Shown: piece after piece, positions 835-54,764 of the stretch | How the letters are laid out: each line of letters begins with the position of its first letter | Numbering within the stretch: position 1 is the first letter of the stretch | Assembly: GCA_001784115.1 (NCBI GenBank) | Contig: MFPD01000009.1 | Span: forward strand, 7,520-71,519 | DNA length: 64,000 nt | Direction of reading: 5' to 3' | Source of the DNA: Candidatus Levybacteria bacterium RIFCSPLOWO2_02_FULL_37_18 | Lineage (GTDB): Bacteria > Patescibacteriota > Microgenomatia > Levybacterales > UBA12049 | Notes under the pieces: generated by a model | What the model was told of the DNA's origin: nothing | Databases searched by the model: none | Seen by the model: the letters and a program-made list of their open reading frames with translations, nothing else | Program-made: the position numbers and the translations under genes

Positions 835-3800
835 ATGCGTAAGAAACAATCGAGTATTGTCGTTTTTTGCTTTATTGCCGTTGTTTTTCTGCTCTTTATA
901 CAGAGAACTGCCTTTGCCTCACGAAGCAAATATTTTGATTTTGGCCCCTACTATAATAAACCTTACGTCCTTGGTGTTTCACTTTCTGTTTTAGAAAACC
1001 TTCCGGCAATTACCATACCAAAAGAAATCGTTCCTCCAAAAGCAACCGGCATTCTGCCGGGCAATCCGCTGCACGGACTTGAAACATTTGCCGAAAACAT
1101 TCAGCTCGGATTCACTTTTGATCCGGTTAAAAAAGAAGAACTCAGGTTGAATTTTGCGGAGGAACGCGTTGCCGAAGCGAAAACATTGCTTGAGGAAGGA
1201 AAAACAGAAGCAGCAAAAGAAGCAATGTATGAATATGACAACCACATTTCTACGCTCACCGACAATATCTCGCATTTGTCCCCCGAACAAAAAAAATCTC
1301 CTGAAAACCTTACCTTGATAAATAAAGCGGAAGAGGCTGCCGCGTCGCATGCAATACTCGCGCAAAGCCTAAGCACTAAGTCTTCTCCTGTGTATGCCGA
1401 AACGTGGAATCAAGCAGAAGAATCAAGCAGAAAACTTCTCGATACCGTTTCAGACATAAAAGGAGAACCGGCTGTGCCAGAGGAGCTAAAAACCGACATT
1501 CAAAAATTAAAAGAGTTCGGAATTGTTTCGGAAGAAGAAAGCAACAAACTTTACAGCTACAAAACAAGAAGTGAATTACGAAGTGAACTTGAAAAACTAT
1601 CAAGCTCCGGACAATTTCCTCTTTCTGAGCTGGCGAAACTCGACACCGGCATTGCCAAACGATATAAAGAATCGTACGATCAACAGCTCTCAAACCTGGA
1701 AGTCGTGGAATTAAAAACATATCAAACACTTGCCCAACCGTCTCAAGATATACTTGCGGATTTAGAAACTTGGAAAGAAGACACTTCAGTTCCGCCGCCA
1801 AACAATATACGACCCTATCTATGGTATAACCATGCACAAGATCTTGCAAAAGAAGTTGACTTATCAAACTTCTCTTCGGATCAACAGGCGCAGGTCGGAA
1901 AATTCTATCCTCAAGCCGTAACCGAAAATAAAACATACTCACCCCCGCCGGTTCCATCGGCAACACCAAGTCCAACACCCCCGCCGGTTCCATCGGGACC
2001 AACCCCATCGGTTTCGCCGACTTCCCCGTCCGTCTCTCCTTCTCCCCAACCAAGCGTTACGCCTGTATCCGCAGCACCTTATATCGGTGAAACAGCCGGA
2101 GCTATACCGGGTGATCCTGCATATTTTTTCAAACAATTTGGAGAACAAGCAAGATTCGCCTTTACTTTTGATCCTGCTCAAAAGGCAAGGCTTAAAATGC
2201 AAGAGGCGGATCGCCGTCTTGCCGAAGCAAGAAAACTGGCATACGATACAAAAAAAGCAAGTCTCTATGAAGCATCGCTTACCCGCTATCGGGAAACAAT
2301 CGTCGATGCCTCACGGTATCTTAAAAATATTTCCAATCCCCAAGAGGCAAAAGACGCTGCAGAACAGATGGAATCCCTTGCAGGACGGCATGAGATAGTT
2401 TTGGAAAAAGGACTCCTTCCTCCGCCCGCAAACAAAACAACTATTATTGGTGATATGATTCTGTCTGCAGAAGACGCAATGGATATAAGCGCTGACAAAC
2501 TCGACAAACCGGCGATTCCTCCTGCCCTTTCTCAGCGTCTCGATGATTTAAAAGCGCAAGGATTGATTCTACCAGAAGAAGCAAACGACTTAGTGATATC
2601 TTCTACGCGCCAACAAGCACGGGAGAAAATCAGAAAACTTGTTGACTTGGAAACATTTCCTCTTGCCGACGCGAAAAAACTTGACGAAGCACAAACGCTT
2701 ACCTCAACGTCTGACTACAATCAATTAGTTGAAGTACGAAAAATAGAAGAGTTGCAAAAACTGAGAGCTGCTCAAGCCGGATTTGCTCAAACTCCCTCCT
2801 TAAAAGCAAACGCACAAACGCTTTCACAACGAGAAATTATACTAACCAGCAGCATTGACACTTCTGTTATCAAACCCGGGGACTTGGCAGGAAGAGAAGA
2901 TCTTCTCAAGGTATATCAAACTATTTCAAAGAATGTCAAACCTATAAATAGTGGCCAGTTTGGTCCTGATGTAAAACCAGGAGTCACCCCAAGCGTAACG
3001 CCGACTCCCACGGGCACTGCTGCCCCGCGATCTTCCGATGCTGTCCTTACAACGTGTCCTATTGGAGCAACATTTAAGCAGTTTGAAGGTTGTGTATGGG
3101 AAGACGGTAAAAAAATAAATGACTATGATCAGTATAAATGCGGTGGTCCCAGACAATACTACTCGTTTGCGGTAAAAAAGTGTATTGCCTGGGAACCCGG
3201 GAAGGGATTTGGTGTTGATGCCGGTCCAATCTGTCCTGTCGGATACGCCTGGTCCTGGCAAACACAAAGTTGCCAAACCTCTCCACTTGTTGTTCCTACT
3301 CCTACAGCCCAACCCGAAGCAATAAATGAAAAAGAACGAAAAGAACGAGAAAAACAATGTCCGGAAGGTTCGACTTATAAATTCCCCGATGGATGCGTAT
3401 GGGACAAAGACGGCAAGTCTGTTTTAGATCCAAAAAGATACGACTGCCCAAGAGGACAATATTATTCGTTTGAAAAACTTGATTGTGTCCCATCGCCCAA
3501 AGAAGGACAACCGTACCCAAAAGATGCTGGTATTACGTGCAAGGAATCCAACGCTGTCTGGAGCTGGCCTGAGGGCGCCTGCAGGCCTATTACAGAACCA
3601 CAACCTCTTGCCCAGACAAAAGATTTTGAAGTCCCAAGACCATTTTTAGTTGCGCCCGACAGTCCGTTTTATTTTGTAAAACAACTTGGAGAAACGATCC
3701 AGCTTGCAACAGCGCTTACTCCGAAAGCAAAAGAAGAAGTACGAATTGCCCAGGCAAAAGAACGGCTAGCCGAAGGATATGATGCGATAATTAAAAAGGA

Positions 3801-6093
3801 TGAAACACAATTTAAAGAAAGCCTGTCGGAGTATACGACAAAAATGCAAGAATTATTTAACGATCTTTCAAAATCGTCACTCTCTTCCGAGGACAAAAAA
3901 AACGTAGGGCAACACTTAAGCAAGCAGGTTGTCGAACAAAACTTGCTGCTGCAAAATATTTCCGCGGTAGCAAGCGATGCGCAGGAAATAAGTATAAATT
4001 CGGCAGTATCTACCACGGTATTAGGAGTAGATAAAGCAGCTGATCTTTCCGGAGAGCCTCCCATTCCTGCTTATGTAAAAGAAAAACTGGAAGCGCTCCC
4101 TAAGGGAATGATTCCCGAGGAAGAAAAGAAAAAATTACTTAAAACGTCTTCCCGTGTTGAAGCAAGGCTCAAACTCGGAAGCCTTGTGTCAGACGGCGTT
4201 CTTACACAAACCGATACTGCTTTTCTGAATGATGATTTTGAAAAAGCTGATATCAACGCAAAAATCAAAACAGAAGAACTTAAAAAACTCGAAGAAATAA
4301 CAACAGTCACAAAACAAAAAGACGAAATAGAGAAAAAAGTTGAAAAGAATGAAAAGATTGTAAAACAGCTTGATGAGTTTGAAAAAACCTTTGAAGTTGG
4401 AAAAGAAGTGCCGGCTGACATCCGCCCGTATGTCAGGCTTACCCGAATCAACGAAATCGCGCAAACGATCCGCCCTGATATTGTAAAACTTGAAGACTTC
4501 TCCAATCGCAGGGACGTGATTTTGGCGGTTGCAACCTTACAGGAAGAGTTTAAGCCTACCAAACAAGCCTTTCAGCAGCTTGCCGACTTTAGAAGAAGAA
4601 ACCCGGGCGCCAGCTTACCTTATGATTTGGCCCGGATTGAGGCTCTGTCATATAGCCTGGGTGTAAGGGATCAGGCTTCTGCCTGTTACCTGCCCCCGCC
4701 CTTCCCGGCCTATACCCCTTGTCCGGCACCGGGGGCAGCCATTCCCATTGTCTCATATTTTGGGCCAGAGGCGGTAATAGCTGGCGAGTTCCGACCCGGC
4801 TGGCCGGGCTCAACTGGACCCAGCGGTCCTTCCGTTGACAAAGACGGCAAACCTTTTATTTACGGCCAAGGACCAAAAGCGGAGAGCTTTGGAGTTTGTG
4901 CCGAGGGCTTTCACTGGATGTACGACTCGGGTGGTTGGTGTATGAGCAACAGCGGCAGCTACACCTCATCAGGCAGCAATACTGCTTATGGCGGGCCGGT
5001 CGGCTCTGGTTATACTCCTTACAGCCCTTACTACAATGCCCCTGGAGTACCTCCTGCCAGTTATGGTTACCAAGATCCTGGCAGCTATCCAACCTATACA
5101 ACTGGTGGTAGCCCATATCCTTATCCACCGCCCAGTTACTATGGTGTGGCGCCAACAAACTATACAACAGATCCTCCTATCGGGACAGTGCCGGGAACAG
5201 GACCGGCTCCAACAGCATCAGGCCAGTGTCCTTCGGGATTTCACTGGATGCCGCCTTCTTATAATCAAGCTGGGTGGTGTATGGCAGACTCGGGAACCTA
5301 TGTGCCAGGCGGTCCTACCCCAACAGGACCTTATTCTCCAAATCTAAATCAAAGCAGTTGCGGTCCTGGATATTACTGGGATGGCCGGGGTTGTATTCGC
5401 ACAAGTCCTACCGATACTTATGGTTCTTGTAGTCCTCCGGGAGGCGGTTGCGGATACAATTCCTATTGGGATTATGGGAGCTGTTCCTGCAGAAGTTCAA
5501 GCATTTATACCGGCGGGGGTAACCCTACATCCGGTAATTCTTGCCAAGGAATCAGTTGTGGCGGAGGATCTTACTTAGACTACTCAACCTGCAGTTGCAG
5601 ATATTCTCCATCCGGACCTACCGGACCTAGTGGAATTGTCACTTCTCCCAATTGTTTCCCACCTGCTGGTGGATGCGGGTCAGGTTGGTTTGACAGCGGG
5701 TCTTGTTCATGTAAACAAGCTTCATCACAAGGATGCTACAACGTATCAGCCTCCAGTTGCGGAAGCGGATTTTATTGGGACTCTTCTGCATGTACATGTC
5801 GCTCAAGCAGCAGCACATCAACTTCAACAGGTTCTTCCGGCAGCACATCAACTTCTTCTTCTACTGGCTCATGTCCATCCGGATATCACTGGATGAGCGA
5901 TAATGGAGGTTGGTGTATGTCAGACGGGAGTTCAAGCAGCAGCACGTCTCCGCCACCTTCAACAACTACTACAACTACAACAGAATCGTCTCCGCCACCT
6001 TCAACAACTACTACAACTACAACAGAATCGTCTCCGCCACCTTCAACAACTGAAACAACCGCACCACCCCCTGCTCAGACGACGTCTCCATAA
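835..6093 (+). CDS. giant secreted modular surface protein (1752 aa). It has a signal peptide, three copies of a ~110-aa alpha-helical module, Pro/Thr/Ser linkers, two ~90-aa Cys-rich repeats, a Gly/Tyr/Pro/Ser-rich Cys-motif tail and a Ser/Thr tandem repeat.
   Basis: The N-terminus MRKKQSSIVVFCFIAVVFLLFIQRTAFA is a signal peptide. A module occurs three times (GFTFDPVKKEELRLNFAEERVAEAK / FAFTFDPAQKARLKMQEADRRLAEAR / FVKQLGETIQLATALTPKAKEEVRIAQAKERLAEG). A Cys-rich unit of the form CPxGxT(F/Y)KxxDGCVW...QYYSF occurs twice. The motif C(P/A)xG(F/Y)HWM...GWCM occurs three times, with several CGxGYYWD...C(T/S)C units. There is no LPXTG motif at the end. Confidence 0.75.
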   Translation: MRKKQSSIVVFCFIAVVFLLFIQRTAFASRSKYFDFGPYYNKPYVLGVSLSVLENLPAITIPKEIVPPKATGILPGNPLHGLETFAENIQLGFTFDPVKKEELRLNFAEERVAEAKTLLEEGKTEAAKEAMYEYDNHISTLTDNISHLSPEQKKSPENLTLINKAEEAAASHAILAQSLSTKSSPVYAETWNQAEESSRKLLDTVSDIKGEPAVPEELKTDIQKLKEFGIVSEEESNKLYSYKTRSELRSELEKLSSSGQFPLSELAKLDTGIAKRYKESYDQQLSNLEVVELKTYQTLAQPSQDILADLETWKEDTSVPPPNNIRPYLWYNHAQDLAKEVDLSNFSSDQQAQVGKFYPQAVTENKTYSPPPVPSATPSPTPPPVPSGPTPSVSPTSPSVSPSPQPSVTPVSAAPYIGETAGAIPGDPAYFFKQFGEQARFAFTFDPAQKARLKMQEADRRLAEARKLAYDTKKASLYEASLTRYRETIVDASRYLKNISNPQEAKDAAEQMESLAGRHEIVLEKGLLPPPANKTTIIGDMILSAEDAMDISADKLDKPAIPPALSQRLDDLKAQGLILPEEANDLVISSTRQQAREKIRKLVDLETFPLADAKKLDEAQTLTSTSDYNQLVEVRKIEELQKLRAAQAGFAQTPSLKANAQTLSQREIILTSSIDTSVIKPGDLAGREDLLKVYQTISKNVKPINSGQFGPDVKPGVTPSVTPTPTGTAAPRSSDAVLTTCPIGATFKQFEGCVWEDGKKINDYDQYKCGGPRQYYSFAVKKCIAWEPGKGFGVDAGPICPVGYAWSWQTQSCQTSPLVVPTPTAQPEAINEKERKEREKQCPEGSTYKFPDGCVWDKDGKSVLDPKRYDCPRGQYYSFEKLDCVPSPKEGQPYPKDAGITCKESNAVWSWPEGACRPITEPQPLAQTKDFEVPRPFLVAPDSPFYFVKQLGETIQLATALTPKAKEEVRIAQAKERLAEGYDAIIKKDETQFKESLSEYTTKMQELFNDLSKSSLSSEDKKNVGQHLSKQVVEQNLLLQNISAVASDAQEISINSAVSTTVLGVDKAADLSGEPPIPAYVKEKLEALPKGMIPEEEKKKLLKTSSRVEARLKLGSLVSDGVLTQTDTAFLNDDFEKADINAKIKTEELKKLEEITTVTKQKDEIEKKVEKNEKIVKQLDEFEKTFEVGKEVPADIRPYVRLTRINEIAQTIRPDIVKLEDFSNRRDVILAVATLQEEFKPTKQAFQQLADFRRRNPGASLPYDLARIEALSYSLGVRDQASACYLPPPFPAYTPCPAPGAAIPIVSYFGPEAVIAGEFRPGWPGSTGPSGPSVDKDGKPFIYGQGPKAESFGVCAEGFHWMYDSGGWCMSNSGSYTSSGSNTAYGGPVGSGYTPYSPYYNAPGVPPASYGYQDPGSYPTYTTGGSPYPYPPPSYYGVAPTNYTTDPPIGTVPGTGPAPTASGQCPSGFHWMPPSYNQAGWCMADSGTYVPGGPTPTGPYSPNLNQSSCGPGYYWDGRGCIRTSPTDTYGSCSPPGGGCGYNSYWDYGSCSCRSSSIYTGGGNPTSGNSCQGISCGGGSYLDYSTCSCRYSPSGPTGPSGIVTSPNCFPPAGGCGSGWFDSGSCSCKQASSQGCYNVSASSCGSGFYWDSSACTCRSSSSTSTSTGSSGSTSTSSSTGSCPSGYHWMSDNGGWCMSDGSSSSSTSPPPSTTTTTTTESSPPPSTTTTTTTESSPPPSTTETTAPPPAQTTSP
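5945..6052 (+). repeat. perfect 42-bp tandem repeat (2.6 copies) encoding ESSPPPSTTTTTTT at the C-terminus of the giant protein
   Basis: cgtctccgccaccttcaacaactactacaactacaacagaat starts at 5945, 5987 and 6029, giving a 42-bp period. Confidence 0.85.
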
Positions 6094-7059: not shown

Positions 7060-7120
7060 ACGTATAGTGAGAGGTATTATATAGAATCAAGGAAAATACT
7101 CAAGACTAAATTCAAAATGC

Positions 7121-7235
7121 TGGCCCTGACCCATTGTCCCCCGAGTCAGACTCGGAGTATCGTAGGCGCTGAGCCGTTTTACTTCTGAGTTCGGAAAGGG
7201 ATCAGGTAGTTCCAACTCGCTCAAAGGACCAGCAA
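7121..7235 (-). rRNA. rrf: 5S rRNA
   Basis: The reverse complement contains CCGAACTCAGAAGTAAAACGGCTCAGCGCC (the classic CCGAACTCAGAAGTGAAACG box). Its ends pair (gctggtcc...ggccagc). It lies directly downstream of the 23S. Confidence 0.7.
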
Positions 7236-7255
7236 AAACGACTTTTCTTTAGAGA

Positions 7256-7333
7256 ATGTCGTCCTGAGGAACATTGCGACGAAGGATCTTTAAAAAGATT
7301 CTTCGTTCTGCTTTTCAGAACTCAGAATGACAT
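7256..7333. repeat. GTCAT-family palindromic element (tgtcgtcctgagg...ctcagaatgaca)
   Basis: inverted termini; located in the 5S-23S spacer. Confidence 0.65.
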
Positions 7334-7535
7334 TGTGTTATGAATAGCTCCTTGAAAGTGAAGAGAAAGGTCCTGCAGTGCAGGATTTGATCTTTATAGA
7401 AAAACTACTCTTTGACCATTAGTACGGGTAGGCTTAACACTTTACAGTGCTTCCACCGCCCGCCTATCAACGTCGTAGTCTACAACGGGTCTCTCCCCCG
7501 ATTAAATCGGGGAACGAGATATTATCTTGAGGTTT

Positions 7536-7566
<31 letters not shown>

Positions 7567-7787
7567 AGTTAGGAATATAGCTACTCAGCGCTGCCCTTGT
7601 AAGGAACAACTGACACACCAGGGATTCCTCCAATCCAGTCCTCTCGTACTAGGATCGGATCCTCTCAAATCTCGAACGGTTATCCAGGATAGAGTCCGAA
7701 CTGATTCACATCGTTCTTAACCCAGCTCGCGTACCGCTTTAACGGGCGAACAGCCCGACCCTTGGAAGCTTCTCCACCTCCAGGATG

Positions 7788-8619
7788 CGATGCACATACT
7801 CTTTTGTTTCCAAAAGTGCAGACTATATCATCACCCCGAGTTACTCTCGGGGGTTGGCATATGATAACTCGTGTATTTTTTTATCTTGAGCTATCTCATC
7901 CGTCAGTTGACGGATTCAGTCGTTACGGGGTCAAGCTCTAGAAGACAGATGACAGAATACAGAAAACCTGCCTACCGACAGGCAGGCAGGACAGATTGCA
8001 GATAAAACAGATCAAAAACAGAAATTCTTAATAGGAGTATGTTTTCCAGTTTTTAATAAATTGCTGAAGTTGTTTAGATTCAATTTTATATCTATCAATC
8101 AGAATGTCACACAGCTTCTGATTAATACGACTAATTCTTTTTGCGAGAATTTTTACTACTTGAACATGAGTAATGAGTTCATCTGATGTTCCCATTGCTA
8201 TTTCAAGAAAACGCTTAAACTCTTTTTCAGATCTTTTTTTGCCAAATCCTTCAGCAATATGCGCTGGAATTGATTCTCCGCATTCGATTAGTTGACCTTT
8301 TAGTTTTCTATGACTCTCTGGAATTTGATTTGCTAAGTCATAAACTAGTGGCAATGCTTCCAAAGCATTCTTGTAAACTTGAAGATCTGTTACCTCTCGA
8401 ATCATGAGAATAGCGTATCATACTTCCGTACTTTCTGTTCTATCCGTTATCCGTCTTCTGTTCTCTGTCATCCGTCCTCAAAAACCGACTTCCCACGGTA
8501 TTGTCCATTGACTTTATCATAACTAGAGAAGATTCATTTAGTCAAGAGGAGTTCACCGTTATTAGCCAAATTTGCTTCAATAATTACTTATTGAAGGGCC
8601 CAAACGCTATTTGCGTTTT
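7788..8619 (-). mobile_element. group I intron-like insertion in 23S (832 nt) carrying a four-helix-bundle ORF
   Basis: Flanking exons read GATGTCGGCT | ... | CATCCTGGAGG, which matches E. coli 23S GTCGGCTC|ATCACATCCTGGGG. A group I S-element-like motif GATGATATAGTCTGC lies ~60 nt from the 3' boundary. Long ACAGAA-word inverted arms flank the ORF (7940-8000 and 8420-8480). Confidence 0.5.
8028..8405 (-). CDS. four-helix-bundle protein (TIGR02436, 23S rRNA intervening-sequence protein family)
   Basis: 125 aa with EALPLVYDLANQIPESHRKLKGQLIECGESIPAHIAEGFGKK...FKRFLEIAMGTSDEL, a family signature. It is encoded inside the 23S insertion. Confidence 0.7.
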   Translation of the reverse strand: MIREVTDLQVYKNALEALPLVYDLANQIPESHRKLKGQLIECGESIPAHIAEGFGKKRSEKEFKRFLEIAMGTSDELITHVQVVKILAKRISRINQKLCDILIDRYKIESKQLQQFIKNWKTYSY

Positions 8620-8867
8620 AGCCGACATCGAGGTGCCAAACCGCCACGTCGCTGTGAACGCTTGGTGGCGATTAGCCTGTTATCCCCGGGGTAGCTTATA
8701 TCCGTTAAGCTCCGTCGCTACCACTAGCGTGCGGAGGATCACTAACACCTGCTTTCGCATCTGCTCGACTTGTAGGTCTCGCAGTTAAGCTGGCTTATGC
8801 GTTTGCGCTATCAGTCCGATTTCCATCCGGACTTAGCCAACCTTTGTACAACTCCGTTGCAATGTAG

Positions 8868-9692
8868 GCAATATTGTTAAGAAAGTTAATCTAATTTGTA
8901 AAGAAAAGAAGTAACAATAAACGGAGATATCAACTTCTTTAGTCTACTAAAAGATGAGGCACGAATATAAATTTCTATACCATCAATTTGCCGTCTTGGA
9001 ATTGCTTCCAATCCAAACTTTTCTTTTAAAACCTGACAAAGAAGAGTAACCTCTTCGATGGTAAAATTATGAGTACATATCAATTTCCCCCAACACTCTT
9101 TTGATTTATACGATCCATCATCCATAAACCAGATAGCGAGTCCCAATTCTGTTAAAAGTTCATTTATATTTTTGGGTATTATCTTGGTTTTTGCTTGATA
9201 GAACAATTCTCTAAAGACAAGAAAGTCGGACAAGCTTAAAGTAGTGAAACCAAAACGCTCAAAGTTACCTCATCGGCATTTTTAATGCTATATTCTACTT
9301 TTAGTCTTGCTGACTTTCTATTTGGAGAAAGCTCGATATGACCATCTCCTAGAATAAGACCCACTAATACTTCCTTTTGTAAATTAGAAAGTTTTAGAGT
9401 CTTTTTATATTCTTCTAAGAGGGTTTGCCTCATCCTAGACACTTTCTATCCGAGCATTTCTGTCGGATTCTCATAGTCGCCTATGAGTTCAGACCATATC
9501 ATACTCTAGTATTAGAGCCCAACATATAGTCGTTGAGGGATCCTGCGCATTTAGCTGAAGGACTTCCCTGCTGATTAACTGCACCAGAAAGATTATCACT
9601 TCTATTTTATCAGAAGTACTTCTGGATACACCAGTTGTTCCAGCATATAGTTGGTTTGCAAATAGGAATTACTTCCTAATGGACCCATAATT
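8868..9692 (-). mobile_element. group I intron in 23S domain IV/V carrying a LAGLIDADG homing-endonuclease gene
   Basis: The 23S sequence is interrupted between GGGGAGGTTGACTCAA and CCTACATTGCAACGGAGTTGTACAAAGGTTGGCTAAGTCC. An S-element-like motif GTATGATATGGTCTGAAC sits at 9478-9495. The ORF lies in the 3' part. Confidence 0.55.
8886..9442 (-). pseudogene. LAGLIDADG homing endonuclease split into two ORFs (68 aa + 115 aa) by a TAA stop and a 1-nt frame change at 9233-9238
   Basis: Motif 1 LVGLILGDGHIE lies in ORF 9236-9442 and motif 2 LAIWFMDDGSYK in ORF 8886-9233. The two frames differ by one base. Confidence 0.7.
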
Positions 9693-9800
9693 GAGTCAAC
9701 CTCCCCAGTTAAACTGCCCGCCAGACACTGTCCCTTCGCCGGATTTTTATGCGGCAAAAAAGTAATGATTGCTCATTTCAAAGAGAGGTATTTCACTTTT

Positions 9801-9968
9801 GCTTGCACGAAGCAAAAGAAAATCCTAATTTCAAAATCCTAAATCCTAAATAAATTACACTTTCAAAAATCCAAATTTACAAACGTTTTAGAATTTTGAA
9901 CATTGTGATTTTGATATTATTTAGAATTTAGATATTAGTGCTTAGAATTTCCTTGTGCTCCGCACAAG
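9801..9968. repeat. AT-rich ~165-bp intervening-sequence-like insertion in 23S (L1-stalk / H76-78 region), copy 1
   Basis: gcttgcacgaagc...aaaatcctaatttcaaaatcctaaatcctaaataaattacac...atttagaatttagatattag...ccttgtgctccgcacaag. It is closed by hairpins and is almost identical to 11140-11298. Confidence 0.6.
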
Positions 9969-10149
9969 CTCCCTCCTATTCTCAACAGTTAAAATAAACC
10001 CTCAAATGCCAAGCTACAGTAAAGCTCCCGGGGTCTTTTTGTCCATGGATAACTAGGCCGCGTCTTCACAGCCATCTCAATTTCGCCGGGTAACAGATCA
10101 AGACAGTTATTCAGTCGTTCTACCTTTCGTGCGGGTCGGAACTCCAAAA

Positions 10150-10520
10150 GAAATTCAAAATTCAAAGTTCAAAATTGCAATGCAAAATTAAAAATTGAAG
10201 TACGTTTGTTTTTATACTCGATCGCTTTTTCAAGCCTCATAGTCGCCTATGAGTTCGGACTATATCATCCTCCACTTTATGGAATTCTGGCATGTAGTCT
10301 CTGAGGGTTCTCGCCTGAGGCGAGTCTTCCCTGCTGATTGACTCCACCAAACAGATTGTTACTTATCATCCTAGACTTAGATATCAGGATCTAAAGTACT
10401 GTCGGATACAGAGTAATTCCAGCATATAGCCAGATTTTGCACTTTACTTTTGTAGAACTCTTTCTCGACTGTTTTTGTTCTATTCCTAAGTGCTGTATCT
10501 TTCGATACATTCGGGCAAGC
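10150..10520 (-). mobile_element. compact ORF-less group I intron in 23S (1917-1931 region, CCTTGTCGGG...|...AGTTCCGACC)
   Basis: The rRNA motif CCTTGTCGGG (~10530) and AGTTCCGACCCGCACGAAAGG (~10120) are separated by ~370 nt. That stretch contains an R-like CAGAGACTACATGCC and an S-like GATGATATAGTCCGAAC (10255-10270) ~100 nt from the 3' end. Boundaries are approximate. Confidence 0.5.
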
Positions 10521-10562
10521 TTACGTGACCCGCAAACTTTTCGCCCGACAAGGAACTTCGCT

Positions 10563-10942
10563 CGATCAGATTGCCAAATCAATCTAAATGGACTATATCT
10601 TCCCCAGTTTTTATTGGAGTCTGACGTATAGTCTCTGAGGATTCTTAGAACTTTTGAGATTCTTAAAAATTGAGACAGAGAAACATCCTTCTCCATCAAC
10701 AAACCCTACAATCCAATTTGCAGTTCCAAGTCTTTCCTGCTGATTATCTCTACTGGTATCATTGTCACTTGGTGAACTCATCTATAATTCTAAGTTACCA
10801 TAGTAGATCCAGAATTGCAAGACTTTCCAGCATATGGTCAGATTTTCATTTTCATGCCTCGGCTAGACATGGGAAATGGAGGATTCTTCCACCAAATGGC
10901 GGACATACCTCACTATGGCAGCGGAGTTTTCTTTCAAACTCT
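10563..10942 (-). mobile_element. compact ORF-less group I intron in 23S, inserted at GGU|AGCGAAGUUCC
   Basis: Joining the 5' exon ...AACTGTTCTATGGT (ending in U) to the 3' exon AGCGAAGTTCCTTGTCGGG restores the conserved CTAAGGTAGCGAAATTCC. The intron ends in G (gatcg). It has an R-like CCTCAGAGACTATACG and an S-like GGAAGATATAGTCC (10590-10603). Confidence 0.55.
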
Positions 10943-11139
10943 ACCATAGAACAGTTATAGTTACTGCTGCCGTTCACTGGAGCTTTCGCCGCGAGCCTCC
11001 CCCTTGCGAGGGTCACCCACAACGATTAACTTACCAGCACTGGGCAGGTGTCAGCCCCTATACGTTAGCTTTCGCTTTTGCAGAGACCTATGTTTTAGAT
11101 AAACAGTCGCTAAATAAACTTTTGCTGTGGCCTCGCGCG

Positions 11140-11298
11140 GAACGCAAGAAAATCCTAATTTCAAAATCATAAATCCTAAATAAATTACACTTTCAAAAAT
11201 CCAAATTTACAAACGTTTTAGAATTTTGAACATTGTAATTTTGATATTATTTAGAATTTAGATATTAGTGCTTAGAATTTCCTTGTGCTCCGCACAAG
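11140..11298. repeat. AT-rich ~160-bp intervening-sequence-like insertion in 23S (helix 63 variable region), copy 2
   Basis: Near-identical to 9801-9968 and also preceded by CCTTGTGCGGAGCACAAGG on the rRNA-sense strand. The flanks match the E. coli ACTTCGGGAGAAGG...CTGTTTATTAAAAACA region. Confidence 0.6.
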
Positions 11299-11962
11299 GC
11301 AGGGCATCTCCCAAAGGTTACGCCCAGTTTTTTTGCCGAGTTCCTTGATCTGCTGTCTCCCGGTCGCCTTAGTCTTCTCGACCAACCCACCTGTGTCGGT
11401 TTACGGTACGGAATAAAAGAACACTCCTCACGAATCTTTTCTCGCGGACTGAAAGCTTAGAATGTTGTCCCCGCGTTTGACGCGGGAACTTCCCATCGCC
11501 ACTCAGTTAGACACTCTGACGGATTTTCCAATCAAAACTACTTTGTAACTTGGTGTCGCATATAGCGGCAAATCCTCTTCCACTCTGGTCAATCCTTGAG
11601 TTATAACGCATTCTCTTATGTAGTCGAATATCAACGACTTGTCCATCGGGTTACCCCGAGATTAGCTCGGAACACCCTTAGGGCCGACTCACCCTCCGCT
11701 GACTTACAGTGCGGAGGAAACCTTGGGTTTTCGGCGTCCCGGTTTCTCACCGGGATCTCGCTACTCATACCGGCATTCTCACTTCGTATCGCTCCACCAT
11801 GCCTTACAACACAGCTTCGCGGCAATACGAACGCTCCCCTACCGTCCGCCAAAGGCGGACCTCCATCTTCGGCAAAAGGCTTAATCCTCGTTACATTTTC
11901 GGCGCTACAAACCTGCCACGTTAGACGTGGACATCCTCCAGTGAGCTGTTACGCTTTCTTTA

Positions 11963-11993
<31 letters not shown>

Positions 11994-12226
11994 TTGTCTC
12001 TGGATTGTAACTTCCTTCAAAACTTAGCCTTTATTTAGAGGCCTTAGATGGGAGTCTGGGCTGTTTCCCTTTTGACTGATCAGCTTAGCCCGACCAGCCT
12101 GACTAGAACGAATATAATCTAGTATTCGGAGTTTGATTGGTTACGACAGCTTGCGCCGCCGAAGACCATTCAGTGCTCTACCCCTAGATCATTGTATCGT
12201 CCCGCTATACCAAAATATATTTCGGG

Positions 12227-12258
<32 letters not shown>

Positions 12259-12489
12259 ATTGCCTCTAACCTCAAGTCATCTCAACCCATTGCTACGGAT
12301 ACGAGTGCGGGCCTTCCCCCGACTTTCATCGGGGTTCACCCTGCTCAAGGTTAGCTCACCCGGTTTCGGGTCTATCCCAATGTACTAAGTAGCTCGGTTA
12401 GAGCTTGCTTTCACTACGCCTCCGCCAGAAACTGGCTTAAGCTTAAACGCACACTAAGATAACTCACCGGTTCATTCTTCAATAGGCAC

Positions 12490-12650
12490 GAGATCACCAG
12501 AGGACAGAAGACAGAATAACGGAAGACGGATATCAGATGACAGAGATACAAAACATCAAGATTTTAATCCTGATCTTCTGTCTTCTGTTTCTCTGCAATC
12601 TGTCCTCTGACTTCTGTACTCTGTCCTCCGGCTCTCTCTGCTTGTCAGCC
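12490..12650. repeat. helix-25-region IVS-like insertion made of ACAGAAGACAGAA / TTCTGTCTTCTGT words forming a long imperfect hairpin
   Basis: gaggacagaagacagaataacggaagacgg...ttctgtcttctgtttctctgcaatctgtcctctg, immediately upstream of the conserved CCCTCACGGTACTAGTTCACTATCGGTC 23S block. Confidence 0.5.
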
Positions 12651-12687
12651 GACAATTTCAGGTCTATTTCATCCCCCTCCCGGGGTG

Positions 12688-12726
<39 letters not shown>

Positions 12727-13364
12727 AGGTCTTGGTATTTAGTCTTGGAACGTGGTCGCCCCAGATTCCCACAGAGTACTTCCTCCATGGTACTTAGGTA
12801 CAAACTATCAGTGTCTTACATTTCGCATACAGGACTTTCACCCTCTATGGTCAGCTATTCCAAGCTGTTCTGCTATATAAAACACCAAATATCGTCTGCC
12901 CTGCAACCCCGAGCTGAGCTCGGTTTAGACTTCTCCCTTTTCGCTCGCCGCTACTTAGGGAATCTCTATGATTTCTTTTCCTCCGGGTACTTAGATGTTT
13001 CAGTTCCCCGGGTACCCTACCAAACACTATTATCAGCCAAAGGCTGAACTTTTATGTTTGGTTCCCGCGTTTGACGCGGTCGATTGCTCGATTCGGAAAC
13101 CGCCGGATTACAGGATTATGACTCCTACCCGACGAGTATCGCCGCCATATGCGTCCTTCCTCGGCCAAAACCTCCTAGGCATCCATTATCGGCATTATGA
13201 GTAGTCTTTTATAAAGACGCTCTACTCCATCCTGATTTCGATACTCAGGATGAAGTCCTTCTCTTCACTTGTCAAGGAGCGAATTGCGATAGCAATTCTC
13301 ATCTCTTTTATGTTTTTGAATAAACTCTCCTCAATACCAGGAGGGCTTGTTCAAAAACATAGGG

Positions 13365-13437
13365 TGGACCCGGGGGGAGTCGAACCCCCTACCTCCTCGT
13401 TGCAAACGAGGCGTTCAACCGGATAAACTTCGGGCCC
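13365..13437 (-). tRNA. tRNA-Ala (anticodon UGC)
   Basis: Reverse complement GGGCCCGAAGTTTATCCGGTTGAACGCCTCGTTTGCAACGAGGAGGTAGGGGGTTCGACTCCCCCCGGGTCCA. It has a 7-bp acceptor stem with G3-U70, a D-loop with GG, anticodon loop tTTGCAAa and T-loop TTCGACT. Confidence 0.85.
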
Positions 13438-13661
13438 GATGTATCCCGTTGAATCCACTAATTTACTTTTCAAACAGACCAAAAGAAAAACCGCTTTATC
13501 GAGGACACAGTAAGACCCTGCTAGGGTTTAAAGTGAACTATTGAGTAAAATTTCATCATAAAAACGATTTATCTTTAGCTGTAACAGACATCTTACCACA
13601 GGCTAAAATAGGTGTCAAGGCCTGAAAATATTGGTAACTGTTTACACTTCTGACACGATTT

Positions 13662-13746
13662 TGTCATCCTGAGCGTAGCCGAGTCAGACTCGGCGTAGCG
13701 AAGGATCTATTCGGTAAAAGTTCTGCTTTCAGCCTCCAGAATGACA
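13662..13746. repeat. GTCAT-family palindromic element (tgtcatcctgagcgtagccgagtcagactcggc...cagaatgaca) immediately 3' of rpoD; probably a terminator
   Basis: inverted termini plus a nested hairpin gccgagtcagactcggc. Confidence 0.7.
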
Positions 13747-13859
13747 ACTCTCTATCAGAACTGTGACCTATTACACGGCAATTGCTATACCAACCCAAGA
13801 TTAAAACACTTTGCAGAACTCCTTCGGGAAGCCGTCCATACTCTTTGAAGCCTCTTCAT

Positions 13860-15197
13860 TCATTCTCGACGGTACTCCTCTCTTAATTGATCCGTTTCTC
13901 TCGCCCGTCTTAGTTTTCTCAACGCCTTTCTTTCTATTTGCCGGGCCCGCTCTCCCGTAAGGCCTATTTTTTTGCCTATTTCCTCAAGTGAATGGGGATG
14001 CTCATTGCCTAAACCGAATCGGAGGGCAAGCACGGCGCTTTCATTTGGACTGAGTGTCTCAAACAAAGCCGCCAGTTCATCTTTTAATAATTCTCTGTCT
14101 GCAGCAGAAGGGGTATCCGCGCCATTATCCGCGATTCCGCCGATAATTTCCGAATCATCTTCATAGCTTACCGGTCGGTTGTACGAAACAACCGTTGTTA
14201 TTTGTAAGGTATACAACGCATCCCGCACCTGTTTCTCTGTACATCCTGCAACTTTCGCGATTTGCTTTGCCGTTGGACTTTGTCCCGATTTTGCCAGTTT
14301 TCTTTGCGCGCTATTTATTTTACTTACCATTTCCAAAAAATTAATAGGGTGTCGTATGGTTTTTGCATTGTTTGCAATCCCACGGATAATTGCTTGGAGA
14401 ATCCAATATGTCGCATATGTAGAAAATTTATATCCGCGTTGGTAATCAAACTTCTCAACCGAACGCATAAGTCCGCCATTGCCATCTTGAACAGCGTCTT
14501 TCAATGGAGAATGATTCGATTCGTATCTTTTAGCGATCGGAATTACCAAACGGAGGTTTGCTGCGATAATATGATTTTTTACCTCTATTCCTCTTCGAAT
14601 TGCCGCATCGACCATTCCTTCCAACATTCCTCTTTTTTCTCCTTCCGGCAAGGATTTTCCTGCCAAAAGACAAACTCCGGTAACGGTTTTTAGTGTTGCT
14701 CTTTCTGCTCTATGGGTTTGCCGGTCTTTCTGCACATCTGCAGACTCTTCTTCAATTGTAAGCATTACCAAATCACTTAGTCCTATCCTTGCAAGAAATG
14801 CCGTTGCGTCCTTTTCGGATACATGAGAAACCAATATGTCTCGTTCTTTTTTTTCTGGTTTTCCGTTTTTCCTCAAAAAGGTAACTTTAGTAACAGTTGC
14901 GCCCGGGTTATATAATTTTTTGACCATCAAGGCAGTTCTACCAAACGCGAGTTCTTGAAAAAGAACCTGTTCTTGCTCCGGGGTAAGAAGAGGGGTTCCG
15001 TTTATATCTCGAAGATACAATGCAAAGGTGTTATCATAAATACCTGCACTTCCTCCATCATTGTTTTCGATATCGGAGGCATCAAAAACAACTCCTCCCA
15101 ATGCAAATGCGTCATGATCCACAGGCTCGATTCCTTCACCTCGCCCATGCCTCCCGCGCGCTTGCTCCCGATCTGTTATTACCATAAAAGCAAGCAA
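13860..15197 (-). CDS. rpoD: RNA polymerase sigma-70 factor (RpoD-like)
   Basis: Regions 2-4 are present: IIAANLRLVIPIAKRY, FSTYATYWILQAIIRGI, SLEEIGKKIGLTGERARQIERKALRKLR. Confidence 0.85.
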   Translation of the reverse strand: MLAFMVITDREQARGRHGRGEGIEPVDHDAFALGGVVFDASDIENNDGGSAGIYDNTFALYLRDINGTPLLTPEQEQVLFQELAFGRTALMVKKLYNPGATVTKVTFLRKNGKPEKKERDILVSHVSEKDATAFLARIGLSDLVMLTIEEESADVQKDRQTHRAERATLKTVTGVCLLAGKSLPEGEKRGMLEGMVDAAIRRGIEVKNHIIAANLRLVIPIAKRYESNHSPLKDAVQDGNGGLMRSVEKFDYQRGYKFSTYATYWILQAIIRGIANNAKTIRHPINFLEMVSKINSAQRKLAKSGQSPTAKQIAKVAGCTEKQVRDALYTLQITTVVSYNRPVSYEDDSEIIGGIADNGADTPSAADRELLKDELAALFETLSPNESAVLALRFGLGNEHPHSLEEIGKKIGLTGERARQIERKALRKLRRARETDQLREEYRRE

Positions 15198-19753: not shown

Positions 19754-20463
19754 TACTCTGCTGTTGCTTCGGGACCTTTATTGTGGAAAGCGGCAATAAA
19801 TTCTTTAATTTTTTCCTTATCAAGACTTTCTAATTTCTCTATTTTCCCCCAAGCAGTTACGGCAATAGGAGCGTCTAAATTTAGACGAGGAACAATAATA
19901 AGCCGCTTCCAATCTTTTAAGAAACTCGATAATTCAGAAACCAGTTTTTTACACTCGTTGGAAGAAAATGAACTGGGTAATTCTACTTCTTTTGCTGGAG
20001 GATTCTCTGGCGTAAATGCACTCATGGTTGGATCTTTTAACTCAATGTTCATCCTATGCAGTGGTGCAGCTGACTCTGTTGCAGTAGGATTGTTTTGAAC
20101 ATCTTCTCCTTCATGAGCATAAGCATTTGAAATTGGAAATTTGAAATTGGAAATTTGAAATTTCTTTTCGCAATTATAAGAAATTACAACGTATCCATGC
20201 TCCAAAGAATGAATTAAGTATCCATCTGATAAAACCCTATCATACACTCCCGGTTTTGCCCAGATGGGAAAATGTTTCCCGGACGTCGGCGGGTTTGAAT
20301 TATATTTTATACCTGAAATATCCGAAACATGATCTCGACCTATATCGGAAATCGCTTGTCCTGGAAGCGGTTTATTCGACTCAGTTATTGCCCACCACAA
20401 AATTCCTACAATGAAGAGAATACCTACAACACTTGCTATAATTATTTTACTACTCGTTTTCAA
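19753..20463 (-). CDS. DUF3105-family membrane-anchored protein with an in-frame GAAATTTGAAATT repeat insertion
   Basis: PPTSGKHFPIWAKPGVY, SLEHGYVVISYNC, RLIIVPR, IAVTAWG. The segment EKKFQISNFKFPISNAYAHE is encoded by the 20110-20170 repeat. Confidence 0.6.
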   Translation of the reverse strand: MKTSSKIIIASVVGILFIVGILWWAITESNKPLPGQAISDIGRDHVSDISGIKYNSNPPTSGKHFPIWAKPGVYDRVLSDGYLIHSLEHGYVVISYNCEKKFQISNFKFPISNAYAHEGEDVQNNPTATESAAPLHRMNIELKDPTMSAFTPENPPAKEVELPSSFSSNECKKLVSELSSFLKDWKRLIIVPRLNLDAPIAVTAWGKIEKLESLDKEKIKEFIAAFHNKGPEATAE

Positions 20464-20699
20464 TTTTGAATTTTCAATTTTGAATTTTCAATTTCTTTTG
20501 CATCATACCCTACCCTTTTTATTATTGCAATAATATGTTTGGGAGAAATTTTTTGCGGGTCGAAAGCAACTTCTGTTTGTTGTCTGGCATAGCTGGTGTT
20601 TGAACTGAATACTCCTTGGGTATCCTCCAATTCCCCATCGATATTCATCGAACAACTGACACAGTGCATACCGATAATGTTTAAATTAATTTTATTCAT
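20460..20699 (-). CDS. copZ: heavy-metal-associated copper chaperone (CopZ-like)
   Basis: GMHCVSC metal-binding motif. The C-terminal tail EIENSKLKIQN is encoded by the word repeat. Confidence 0.75.
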   Translation of the reverse strand: MNKINLNIIGMHCVSCSMNIDGELEDTQGVFSSNTSYARQQTEVAFDPQKISPKHIIAIIKRVGYDAKEIENSKLKIQN

Positions 20700-21915: not shown

Positions 21916-24393
21916 TTATATTTTAATCCTTACTCTCTTTAATTGCAATGAGTTTAAGACTACGGAGATAGAACTCATTGCCATAGCAGCTGATGCAAAA
22001 ATCGGGTTCATAAGAATATTAAAAAATGGATACAGTGCGCCCATGGCAACGGGAATAAGGATAATGTTGTATCCAAATGCCCAAAACAGATTAAGTTTTA
22101 TTGTCCACATTGTTTTTTTAGACAACTCAATTGCGGTGGCAACAGATCGCAGATCTTTATTAATTAACGTTATATCTGCCGCCTCAATTGCCACATCTGT
22201 CCCCGTCCCCATTGCAATTCCAACATCTGCTGCTGCCAAAGCCGGAGCGTCATTAATGCCATCACCTATCATCGCAACGACATGTCGTTGCTTGGAATTT
22301 CCAATTTCCAATTTCCAATTTCCAATCATCAAATTTGTTGATTTGTTGATTTGTTGATTTGACATTTGTAATTCTCTAACGATCTTTTCTTTTTCCTGAG
22401 GCAGTACTTCCGCATACACCTTTTCAATCTCCACTTGTTTTGCGATTGCTTCTGCGGTCCTTTTATTATCTCCCGTTATCATAACCGGTTCTATTCTCAT
22501 CTTTTTGAGAACCACTACTGCCTCTTTTGCAGAATCTTTAATTGTATCTGCAACCGCAATTAAACCTGCTAATTCTCCATTTACCCCTAACATCATTACT
22601 GTCTTCCCTTCGTTCTCCAATTCTTCAATCTTCAATCTTAAATCATCAATCTTTAGACTTTCTCTCTCCATCAATTTCCTATTCCCAAACACAACTTTTA
22701 ACTTTGAATTTTGAACTTTTAATTCTCCTTCCACTCCGTGTCCGGGTATGGCTTTAAATTGTGTAATTGGTTGAACTTTTATATTCTGTTCCTCTGCTTT
22801 TCTAATAATTGCTTCCGCTAAGGAATGTTCTGAACCCTTTTCTAGCGACGCAGTAATCTGTAGAATTTGATTAGTTAGTTGGTTAGTTCGTTTATCGTTC
22901 ACAGTAGATTTTTCTTTACTGTGAACTGTGAACTGTGAACTGTGAACTATATCCGTCACCTCTGGTTTCCCCTTAGTCAGCGTCCCTGTCTTATCAAAAA
23001 CCACTGTATTCACTCTATGCACAGTTTCCAAAGCCTCTGCATCTTTAATCAAAATTCCATTTTCTGCTCCTTTACCAGTCCCCACCATAATTGCCGTGGG
23101 AGTGGCTAGTCCCATGGCGCACGGACAGGCAATTATCAAAACCGCAATCATGTTTAAAAGCGCAAACAAAGGCGATCCAAAAATGTACCAAATAACAAAT
23201 GTCAAAATTGCAAGCATAATAACAATTGGAACAAAATACGAAGAAATCAAATCAGCCATCCTCTGGATGGGCGCTTTACTCCCCTGCGCTTCTTCAACCA
23301 GTTTTATTATCTGAGAGAGCATTGTATCTTTCCCAACTTTTGTAGCTTTATATAAAAACGTTCCGGACTTATTTATGGTAGCCCCAATTACCATATCCCC
23401 TTTTGCTTTATCAACAGGAATACTTTCTCCGGTTACCATTGATTCGTCAATTGAAGATTCTCCCTCGATAATCTGCCCATCAACCGGAATCTTCTCCCCC
23501 GGCCGAACCCGAATAACATCTTCCACCACAACTTCTTCGATCGGAATATCAACTTCAGCATACTTCTCGTCATTGCGAGGAATCCCGCAATGGCGGGATG
23601 ACGCGGCAATCCCATCCAATTTTAGAGATTGCTTTGCTCCGCTCGCAGTGACAGACGAGCGAAGCACTCGTGCAGTCCGCGCTTGGAGACCAATCAATTT
23701 TTTTATTGCCTCGGAAGTCCCAGCTTTTGCTTTTGCTTCAAAATATCTTCCCAAAATAATAAGACCAATAATAATTGTGGAGACATCAAAATACGGCTCT
23801 GGTTTTATTCCTATACGCTCGACTATAAATGGAAATAGCGTTACAAATGTTGAATAGAAAAATGCAACGGTTGTTCCCAAAACAACAAGCGTATCCATGT
23901 TCGCGTTTCTATGCCTTATAGCAAGAATTGTTGCCTTATAAAACATAAGACCTGCCCAAAACTGAACAGGAATCGCTAGTATTAGCTGAATATAAAAGTT
24001 TTGGAGAATTTGAGGAGATGTATTCATGATTCCAGGAAAACTCCCCCACACAATAAGCCCTCCTAAAAATAAACTGACAAACACTTTTTGCTTGAGCTTT
24101 TGAAGTTCTTTTTGTTTGTTCTCCGAATCCCCGCTCAGCGGGGCGAAGTGGGATTTTTCTTCCTCAAAATTCGCCTCATATCCAACAGACGAAATCGCTT
24201 TCGCAAGATCTTGTTCTGAAACTTCTGATTCCTGTTGAATCGTAGCTTTTCCGGTTGCCAAATTCACAACCGCACTACTTACTCCTGGAACTTTTTTAAG
24301 TGCCCTTTCTGTCACCCCCACACAACTCGCACAATGCATACCGCGCACTTGAAAAATGCGCTTTGTTAGTTTGTTAGTTCGCTCATCGTTCAT
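21916..24393 (-). CDS. copA: Cu+-exporting P1B-type ATPase carrying about five in-frame palindromic-repeat insertions
   Basis: N-terminal HMA GMHCASC. Conserved motifs: TGES, CPC ([12 protein letters not shown]), [17 protein letters not shown]. Repeat-derived inserts: TNKLT (N-terminus), [92 protein letters not shown]. Confidence 0.9.
23568..23653. repeat. GTCAT-family element inserted in-frame inside copA (between the actuator-domain KTARV and PIEEV motifs)
   Basis: cgtcattgcgaggaatcccgcaatggcgggatgacg...gctcgcagtgaca; translated as [31 protein letters not shown]. Confidence 0.75.
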
Positions 24394-54738: not shown

Positions 54739-54764
54739 AACTCTTGATATTGTATCATAGTAAC

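Follow-up and report, generated by a model that had tools for sequence, protein, structure and literature searches.

Why should the same AT-rich palindrome stand twice in a single 23S rRNA gene, at two different helices, and again between protein-coding genes? The question is raised by a stretch of 64,000 nucleotides from Candidatus Levybacteria bacterium RIFCSPLOWO2_02_FULL_37_18 (contig MFPD01000009.1, positions 7,520 to 71,519), which belongs to the candidate phyla radiation (CPR). The whole stretch is called the window here, and all positions refer to it. The two copies in the 23S rRNA gene, named units A and B below, had originally been predicted from the DNA letters to be a mobile intervening sequence (IVS). 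We propose that they are copies of a mobile, non-coding palindromic insertion that is probably cut out of the transcript by RNase III, in the manner of classical IVSs, and give this reading a probability of roughly 55%. Judged from sequence, the rRNA-resident form is probably a new variety of rRNA IVS; it is not an ancestral part of the ribosome.

Two copies of one unit in a 23S rRNA gene

The host gene and the parts of the two units are as follows.

7412-13209, minus strand: bacterial 23S rRNA gene, host of units A and B (Rfam LSU_rRNA_bacteria matches and alignments)
9801-9969, minus strand: unit A, whole palindromic insertion in place of the tip of helices 77 and 78 (H77/H78) in the L1 stalk (Rfam alignment, homology break, fold)
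9951-9969, minus strand: 5' clamp of unit A, GCUUGUGCGGAGCACAAGG, self-palindromic (sequence; paired with the 3' clamp in the minimum free energy (MFE) structure; clamp covariation)
9819-9950, minus strand: AT-rich core of unit A, made of CUAAAU / AUUUAG 7-nt words (Tandem Repeats Finder, period 7; nhmmer E = 7e-25 with a profile of other genomes' copies)
9801-9818, minus strand: 3' clamp of unit A, CUUUUGCUUCGUGCAAGC, outside the near-identical block (sequence comparison, fold)
11131-11299, minus strand: unit B, whole palindromic insertion at the tip of helix 63 (H63) (Rfam alignment, homology break, fold)
11281-11299, minus strand: 5' clamp of unit B, CCUUGUGCGGAGCACAAGG (sequence, fold)
11149-11280, minus strand: AT-rich core of unit B (nhmmer E = 3.5e-23, same profile)
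11131-11148, minus strand: 3' clamp of unit B, CUUGCGUUCCGCGCGAGG (sequence comparison)

Both units are non-coding and share one plan. A palindromic clamp of 19 nt, rich in GC, is followed by an AT-rich hairpin of CTAAAT/ATTTAG heptamers and then by a complementary 3' clamp. In an ungapped comparison, 9816-9968 and 11146-11298 are identical at 151 of 153 positions. A repeat of this length at 98.7% identity excludes a chance origin. The two near-identical copies are real, and the near-identical part is shorter than the ~165 bp first claimed. The description of the copies as made of palindromic words was also sound. They are AT-rich with a 7-nt periodicity, which Tandem Repeats Finder picks up as AAATCCT arrays of period 7 at 9820-9851 and 11150-11181. 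The repeated block comprises the 5' clamp and the core. Past its 3' end, in the rRNA sense, the copies diverge (9801-9815 versus 11131-11145). By inspection, the two 3' clamps differ at about one third of positions and by indels, and that of unit B is closer to the 3' clamp of an H78 unit in a more distant 23S gene (L070, see below) than to that of unit A.

A hairpin word had been said to precede each copy. Instead, this word, (G/C)CUUGUGCGGAGCACAAGG at 9951-9969 and 11281-11299, forms the first 18-19 nt of the repeated block and pairs over a long range with the 3' clamp. In its general form the rRNA-resident clamp is a GC-rich nested palindrome, CCUUGUGC-NNN-GCACAAGG, at the 5' end with its complement at the 3' end.

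Placement in the L1-stalk region and at helix 63 was correct. In the Rfam structural alignment, unit A adds 141 nt to the H77/H78 hairpin at its tip, flanked by GGGAG and UGAAAUACC, and unit B adds 145 nt to the hairpin directly after H62, which is H63. The trinucleotide CTT lies on both sides of each unit. The group I covariance model of Rfam has no match at either unit, even at E <= 10, and Rfam holds no family for the units; the sub-threshold matches obtained are to plant miRNA precursors, which are generic long hairpins. By inspection, the 5' flanks of A and B and of the units in L070 and L038 (see below) share no tetranucleotide of the kind used in IS200/IS605-type targeting.

Folding of the units

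When each copy is folded, a single long hairpin results, as had been suggested. The MFE is -59.6 kcal/mol for unit A (z -8.2) and -69.8 kcal/mol for unit B (z -10). At the base of the hairpin, the 5' word pairs with the site-specific 3' sequence in a GC-rich stem of 14 bp, and an AU-rich, nearly continuous duplex follows. As the 5' word is self-palindromic, two local mini-hairpins are an alternative conformation. Across five rRNA-resident units, in which A and B are not independent, the long-range clamp stem is paired in 90.5% of cells and the local hairpins in 96%. In this small sample, seven clamp pairs are altered on both sides, including the three positions that the local hairpin would have as its loop (GGA/UCC, GCA/UGC, UCU/AGG).

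The fold also depends on the strand. In the rRNA sense units A and B reach -59.8 and -65.6 kcal/mol, compared with -34.5 and -39.0 in the antisense, with 8 versus 1 G-U pairs. The same bias holds in all seven rRNA-resident hairpins examined, where the rRNA-sense fold is better by 13-27 kcal/mol and has 6-11 G-U pairs, against 1-4 in the antisense. This suggests a constraint on the RNA, beyond a mere palindrome in the DNA.

Empty and filled sites in other 23S genes

Three CPR relatives of the host gene (L054, L056 and L059) were recovered from metagenome contigs, which were scanned for a 23S 21-mer specific to the lineage. Identity to the window 23S was measured over the 176-nt and 105-nt flanks of H78.

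L056: flanks 93.2% and 87.6% identical, H78 empty
L059: flanks 90.9% and 85.4% identical, H78 empty
L054: flanks 89.8% and 81.0% identical, H78 empty
L070: flanks 84.5% and 78.0% identical, H78 with a clamped unit
L038: first flank 80.0% identical, second without a match, H78 with a clamped unit

In these first three genes, the closest recovered, H63 is a mini-hairpin of 18-19 nt (for example CCCCGACAUAACGUCGGGG) and H77/78 consists of 12-14 nt (for example CUUUGGCAUUAG). Homology to these relatives ends at 9966-9969 and restarts at 9797 around unit A, and ends at 11298 and restarts at 11126-11135 around unit B. Such stumps are in keeping with published comparisons, in which H63 is among the regions missing from CPR 23S rRNA and H78 is missing in all Microgenomates (PMC9297842); Levybacteria are part of the Microgenomates. 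That the units are insertions and not ancestral segments, as first argued, is thus borne out by relatives with 81-93% flank identity.

Filled sites are found further away. The H78 unit of L070 reads CCUUGUGCGCAGCACAAGG, then AAAUUCC and further core, then CUCGCGCUGCGCGCGAGG. In L038 (CAYSEQ010000013.1) the family profile described below finds units at H45, H78 and H98, the last beginning with CCUUGUGCUCUGCACAAGGAAAUUCC; the clamped heptamer hairpins of this contig lie at 745-834, 1810-2037 and 3541-3670, and a run of half-elements at 7180-7390. The metagenome-assembled genome (MAG) to which the contig belongs is labelled uncultured Gammaproteobacteria. Given that its 23S is ~75% identical to that of the window and no closer to the other 23S genes compared, the bin label may be wrong. 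Among all sequence fetched, only rRNA-resident units have the clamp CTTGTGC-NNN-GCACAAGGAAAT: those at H63 and H78 of the window and at H98 of L038, and the H78 unit of L070 bears the same clamp. In the window 23S itself, H45 and H98 are short and free of insertions.

Vertical inheritance within the clade does not describe this distribution, since the three closest 23S genes lack the units and two that are more distant have them. Sites that are empty in closer genes and filled in distant ones, at different helices, point to insertions that are patchy and, in the evolutionary sense, mobile. One idea about the clamp was dropped, namely that its 5' strand is the native strand of H78: the relatives are nearly without H78, and the same clamp stands at H63 here and at H98 in L038. 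A route to rRNA relatives through homologues of the LAGLIDADG open reading frame (ORF) in the host gene was likewise abandoned, as the homologues on long contigs are phage-borne and not in rRNA; only L070 proved useful.

A hairpin family found mostly between genes

The core of the units belongs to a wider family. It was collected from GTDB genomes with one exact 24-mer common to A, B and a copy in the murD-tgt spacer of the window, and a profile built without any window sequence recovers A, B and two further members, giving four within 64 kb.

57768-57882, unstranded: family member C, without a GC clamp, filling the murD-tgt spacer (nhmmer E = 3.6e-14)
57859-59295: murD, flanking copy C (Pfam)
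56340-57767: tgt, flanking copy C (Pfam)
41546-41671, unstranded: family member D, more degenerate than C, between two co-directional minus-strand ORFs (nhmmer E = 4.6e-13)

Copy C forms a hairpin of -29.4 kcal/mol (z -4.0) on the plus strand. Copy D lacks the seed 24-mer and folds weakly on the minus strand (z -1.25). The intergenic relative of the original prediction is accordingly real, and its bounds, given as 57775-57860, had to be corrected to those of copy C.

The 24-mer occurs at 42 loci in Patescibacteria (including another member of Levybacteria), Bacteroidota, Gammaproteobacteria, Planctomycetota, Dehalogenimonas and Armatimonadota. At 22 distinct loci the similarity spans the whole or nearly the whole of a 95-160-nt hairpin, and at the others one arm only. 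Over 133-152 nt, two loci (L030 and L032) share 82-85% identity with A/B. The matching element is outside rRNA genes at all 42 loci; the 24-mer match of L038 sits downstream of its 23S. Most copies occupy spacers between co-directional genes, often ending 4-20 nt ahead of a start codon, such as those of ORFs judged by eye to be IF-1-like and MreB-like, and heptamer units are shuffled between family members. Together with the two intergenic copies in the window, these loci confirm that the family is not specific to rRNA.

In one genome the family hairpin is part of a transposable element. The Bacteroidetes MAG MFD04780.bin.1.106 carries a 198-bp miniature inverted-repeat transposable element (MITE), GGTGGGTTCT...AGAAGTCCCC, with the hairpin as its core. 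There are eight copies (one of 191 bp), and the 4 bp on either side of each are perfect duplicates (TATA, TTAA or TAAA). They are the loci L021, L024, L039, L040, L044, L045, L048 and L051, and two of the copies adjoin on one contig. The claim of a mobile IVS therefore holds as regards mobility in the evolutionary sense, for which the clamped units at H78, H45 and H98 of distant 23S genes and the MITE version both speak.

Two possible associations of the family were rejected. A general link to the 23S_rRNA_IVP (PF05635) gene fails since tblastn finds an IVP-like gene in one of the 42 family loci only (L025, ~1.5 kb away). As to phages as a vehicle, a half-element is found in only one lineage among the viral contigs, and the rRNA clamp in none of them.

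Origin and fate of the units

The core stems from this widespread, heptamer-built hairpin family, which normally lies between genes, and the units stand on the tips of the reduced stumps that remain of H63 and H77/78 in this Levybacteria 23S rRNA. The course of events that we favour is two older insertions followed by a recent intragenic gene conversion of the 5' clamp and core. Alternatively, that 153-nt block alone may have been copied recently from helix to helix and stabilised by the similarity of the 3' clamps. A single recent duplication of the whole unit fails to account for two differences in the 153-nt block beside diverged 3' clamps.

Once transcribed within the pre-23S rRNA, each unit would fold in the rRNA sense to one hairpin of ~65-70 bp, coaxial with its host helix. 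The long AU-rich duplex would then be cut out by RNase III, by analogy with classical 23S IVSs, and the 14-bp GC clamp may keep the resulting 23S fragments together. Cleavage is expected because the duplex far exceeds ~20 bp, because nemis repeats are processed likewise and because there is precedent in the CPR. According to work cited in PMC4524435, bacterial RNase III cleaves stems of more than 20 bp, and in Neisseria transcripts it does so with the stems of nemis repeats. Short ORF-less insertions in CPR rRNA genes have been proposed to be RNase III IVSs (PMC11270868), and the summary of Brown et al. in the same paper has insertions in CPR rRNA genes removed from transcripts. A role of the clamp in holding the fragments is suggested because the relatives with empty sites and the intergenic family members are without a GC clamp.

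Several points weigh against this reading. Firstly, excision is predicted by analogy. Secondly, H63 and H77/78 are not the classical IVS sites, which are H25 and H45, and Escherichia coli ribosomes are functional, with near-normal growth, when they carry 31-nt insertions at H25, H63, H78 (five sites) and H98, which makes retention plausible (PMC2441807). Thirdly, a tblastn search with E. coli rnc found no RNase III gene in the window, an uninformative ~6% of an assumed genome of ~1 Mb, or in loci of its own population. No transposase was noticed among the ten window ORFs scanned, and there is no consistent target-site duplication, the CTT that flanks A and B being missing from the units of L070 and L038. 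The rRNA-resident subfamily is known from three organisms only, and membership of the wider family is biased by its ascertainment with a single exact 24-mer. Finally, RNAalifold on a 23-sequence family alignment yields only 10 pairs, all fixed by the search pattern, and no covariation, because heptamer slippage misaligns the arms.

Retention of the hairpins in mature 23S rRNA is a serious rival, although a somewhat unlikely one. The units would be solvent-exposed helices that regrow the H63 and H78 lost in the CPR, like the eukaryotic expansion segments ES27L and ES30L. H63, H78, H98 and H25, which tolerate insertions in E. coli, correspond to ES27, ES30, ES39 and ES7 (PMC2441807), and the units occupy exactly the gap regions of CPR rRNA at H63, H78 and H98 (PMC9297842). 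The rRNA-sense-specific fold with its many G-U pairs also implies selection on the RNA. On the other hand, a mostly continuous AU-rich duplex of ~65 bp is an obvious substrate for RNase III, and the reported removal of insertions from CPR rRNA transcripts, as far as it is summarised in PMC11270868, runs counter to retention. The absence of the units from the closest relatives argues against any conserved ribosomal role, and two near-identical copies argue for recent turnover over a fixed architecture. A bolder variant seems quite unlikely: a clamp-marked, rRNA-colonising form would hop between the stumps of lost helices (H45, H63, H78, H98) and be retained in the mature ribosome. If true, it would be the birth of expansion segments by mobile DNA, caught in the act in bacteria.

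It is improbable that A and B are independent recent transpositions of a transposase-driven MITE, each having duplicated a 3-bp CTT target. The CTT...CTT around both units fits this idea, as do the homologous core of the bona fide Bacteroidetes MITE with its 4-bp TWWA duplications and the multi-copy nature of the family, with four members in 64 kb. Independent transposition leaves unexplained, however, the 13-14 bp of pairing that joins the 5' clamp to the site-specific 3' flank in A as well as in B. Moreover, the MITE ends GGTGGGTTCT...AGAAGTCCCC are absent from A and B, and both the lack of a comparable duplication in L070 and L038 and the ORF scan, in which no transposase was noticed, count against it.

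An assembly artefact, with one repeat collapsed or duplicated by short-read assemblers and only one rRNA copy real, is very improbable. It is true that the 153-nt repeat is longer than typical reads, and two contigs from the population of the window show what it can do: L010 is a chimera in which the inter-copy region is joined to itself via the repeat, and L007 starts inside copy A. However, the window matches contig MFOP01000009.1 of GCA_001782445.1 and several metagenome contigs from the Rifle aquifer, and six independent assemblies from different samples and assemblers (ENA MEGAHIT, NCBI, JGI) contain both copies, arranged alike and told apart by the same two mismatches. All four unit junctions run into unique, correctly ordered rRNA flanks, and the same architecture recurs at H78, H45 and H98 in other organisms. 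This agreement argues that the arrangement is not an artefact. Lastly, the notion that heptamer slippage at each helix tip produced convergent AT-rich hairpins, to which a genome full of period-7 arrays and the shuffling of heptamers between family members might lend some colour, is effectively refuted by the 151/153 identity, which reaches through the non-repetitive centre and the GC clamp, and by intergenic copies in other genomes that are 82-85% identical over 133-152 nt.

Relation to known elements

On the reading preferred here, that of a mobile insertion probably removed by RNase III, the closest counterparts are the classical 23S IVSs of Salmonella, Campylobacter, Leptospira and Coxiella, which are located at H25/H45 and excised by RNase III. 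Like these, the units are sporadic stem-loops at the tips of surface helices, where no ligation would be needed as the base of the helix would hold the fragments. They are extra helix-tip sequences absent from relatives, each with an extended, largely continuous stem-loop. The window 23S also bears an H25 hairpin and an insertion with an IVP (PF05635) ORF, and L038 has a unit at H45. The units differ from classical IVSs in standing at H63 and H77/78, in the presence of the same element twice per gene, in excision that is so far predicted, in a core from a mainly intergenic, cross-phylum family, and in a conserved GC clamp in the form of a nested palindrome.

In the CPR, short (<200 bp) ORF-less rRNA insertions have been recorded by Tsurumaki et al. 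(2024, PMC11270868). They match the units in organisms and size class, and in being neither introns nor ORF-bearing. They are listed there as uncharacterised, whereas a sequence family, clamps, helix-to-helix duplication and an intergenic link are described here; the words 'repeat' and 'hairpin' do not appear in that paper.

Similar elements are also known outside rRNA. The Correia/nemis repeats of Neisseria and other repeats of MITE or repetitive extragenic palindromic (REP) type are palindromic, non-coding, intergenic and ~100-200 bp long, and as transcripts they form hairpins; RNase III cuts the stems of nemis according to work cited in PMC4524435, and one relative of A/B is a MITE with target duplications. 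As in MITEs, terminal inverted repeats and dispersed copies are present, the whole unit being palindromic, with four members in 64 kb and many elsewhere. In contrast to these repeats, A and B are built of 7-nt words, belong to a cross-phylum family, reside in rRNA with GC clamps, and show no link to a transposase in the ORFs scanned. The nested-palindrome clamps resemble the inverted pair of REPs in a REPIN, without a GTAG-type head.

Rickettsia palindromic elements are palindromic repeats tolerated inside functional protein and RNA genes, at surface-exposed parts of the product. Their likeness to A and B is one of general kind, with no relation in sequence.

Eukaryotic expansion segments occupy the identical helices, namely ES27L at H63, ES30L at H78, ES39L at H98 and ES7L at H25 (site mapping in PMC2441807). 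Those segments are retained and vertically inherited, whereas the units are patchy, near-identical within one gene and probably removed.

The direct repeats of the heptamer TAACTGA (MacGregor 2015, PMC4679880) are also tandem 7-nt words, often positioned a few nt upstream of start codons and occasionally in ORFs. Phyla as distant as Beggiatoaceae, Cyanobacteria and Bacteroidetes share them, although no mechanism of transfer is known. They are direct arrays of one heptamer, whereas the present family has two complementary arms in a long hairpin and a conserved non-repetitive part. As far as the searched literature shows, hairpin-forming, rRNA-invading relatives of heptamer repeats are undescribed.

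The host gene and other repeats in the window

The 23S rRNA gene is 5.8 kb long and, set against the bacterial model, contains at least six insertions (Rfam alignment). They comprise the hairpin at helix 25, the 145 nt at helix 63 and the 141 nt at helix 77/78, and three longer ones: a ~730-nt insertion holding group I intron(s), an 838-nt one holding both a group I intron and a LAGLIDADG ORF, and an 842-nt one holding a 23S_rRNA_IVP ORF. Further features of the operon are the following.

7118-7233, minus strand: 5S rRNA (Rfam)
8028-8405, minus strand: 23S_rRNA_IVP ORF, 125 aa (PF05635, E = 1.9e-17), inside the 842-nt insertion near model position ~2550 (Pfam)
12490-12641, minus strand: long hairpin insertion at helix 25, the classical IVS site, with GACAGAA-type heptamers (Rfam insertion at model ~583)
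13363-13437, minus strand: tRNA-Ala (Rfam)

The operon runs in the order tRNA-Ala, 23S, 5S, with a sigma-70 gene directly upstream. No 16S rRNA gene lies within the 64-kb window, where the region upstream of tRNA-Ala is 13438-15197, so the 16S is unlinked or distant. For a 276-aa protein adjoining the 5S, the closest homologue found has 42% identity over only 40% of the length.

The minus strand apparently holds three group I introns that are related to one another, at 9470-9703, 10236-10532 and about 10580-10816. Two pass the Rfam threshold, and the third is implied by common 37-39-nt repeats at 9563, 10326 and 10732. In the LAGLIDADG ORF (8886-9233, minus strand) only the C-terminal half of the Pfam model is matched, and in other assemblies it is annotated as 65 + 115 aa; the ORF may therefore be split or decayed. 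The arms of the 842-nt IVP insertion are rich in heptamers, and the insertion is not present in L056, L059 or L054.

The helix 25 hairpin (-85.6 kcal/mol, z -8.3) is the same kind of element as A and B, from a different family. It has relatives at 7940-8006, flanking the IVP ORF in the 842-nt insertion, and at 45885-45947, inside an ORF at 45241-46356. With relatives in and out of rRNA, it represents a second repeat family common to rRNA and non-rRNA sites. A stretch of AAATTCA heptamers at 10143-10209, at the edge of the ~730-nt insertion, matches the profile of the A/B family weakly (E = 0.018) and has 91% complementarity over 32 nt with 20469-20500, which lies immediately upstream of an ORF.

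Heptamer richness is a genome-wide trait, which recalls the TAACTGA repeats (PMC4679880). Tandem Repeats Finder reports ~30 short period-7 arrays in the window, with many different units, in intergenic DNA, ORFs and the rRNA gene. Examples lie at 20125-20163, 20457-20494, 22918-22948, 30589-30621, 33020-33050, 34655-34689, 38212-38243, 43783-43863, 45923-45948 and 58030-58063.

Protein-coding genes are not exempt. A CopA-like P-type ATPase (21916-24393, minus strand) has in-frame insertions when compared with CopA of A. fulgidus (3j09). The first, at aa 247-279 (DNA roughly 23557-23655), overlaps a REP-like palindrome family (copy 23624-23666). The others are at aa 484-507 (22871-22948), with TTAG and ACTGTGA arrays, at aa 546-553 (22693-22724), and at aa 678-700 (22296-22361), with 4.4 copies of AATTTCC and 3.6 of ATTTGTTG. 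This suggests that short repeats survive in-frame inside a conserved gene, like Rickettsia palindromic elements. The gene of a DUF5667 protein of 1752 aa holds a 42-nt tandem repeat (5945-6070; 2.5 copies, 100% match), and the length of this protein differs between strains, from 1738 to 1752 aa in other assemblies.

Two more dispersed repeats were seen. A ~90-nt element upstream of tRNA-Ala (13634-13774) has copies at 52694-52818 and 54760-54904, and a palindrome GTCATTCTGAAC...GTTCAGAATGAC is present in at least six copies (34128-34158, 39758-39789, 43637-43670, 50018-50049, 56929-56960 and 60159-60190).

Implications

Repeats of this kind have a practical consequence, in that they break or scramble rRNA assemblies, as in L007 and L010, and inflate the length of rRNA genes in MAGs. 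The biological meaning is broader. The short ORF-less insertions of CPR rRNA genes, which are common yet uncharacterised, gain a defined architecture of clamp, heptamer hairpin and clamp, and rRNA insertions are tied to a palindromic family that is found between genes in many phyla and as a MITE. The element stands at H63 and H78 here and at H45, H78 and H98 elsewhere, that is, at helices that tolerate insertions in E. coli and bear expansions in eukaryotes. With this, the origin of IVSs and expansion segments from mobile hairpins becomes testable.

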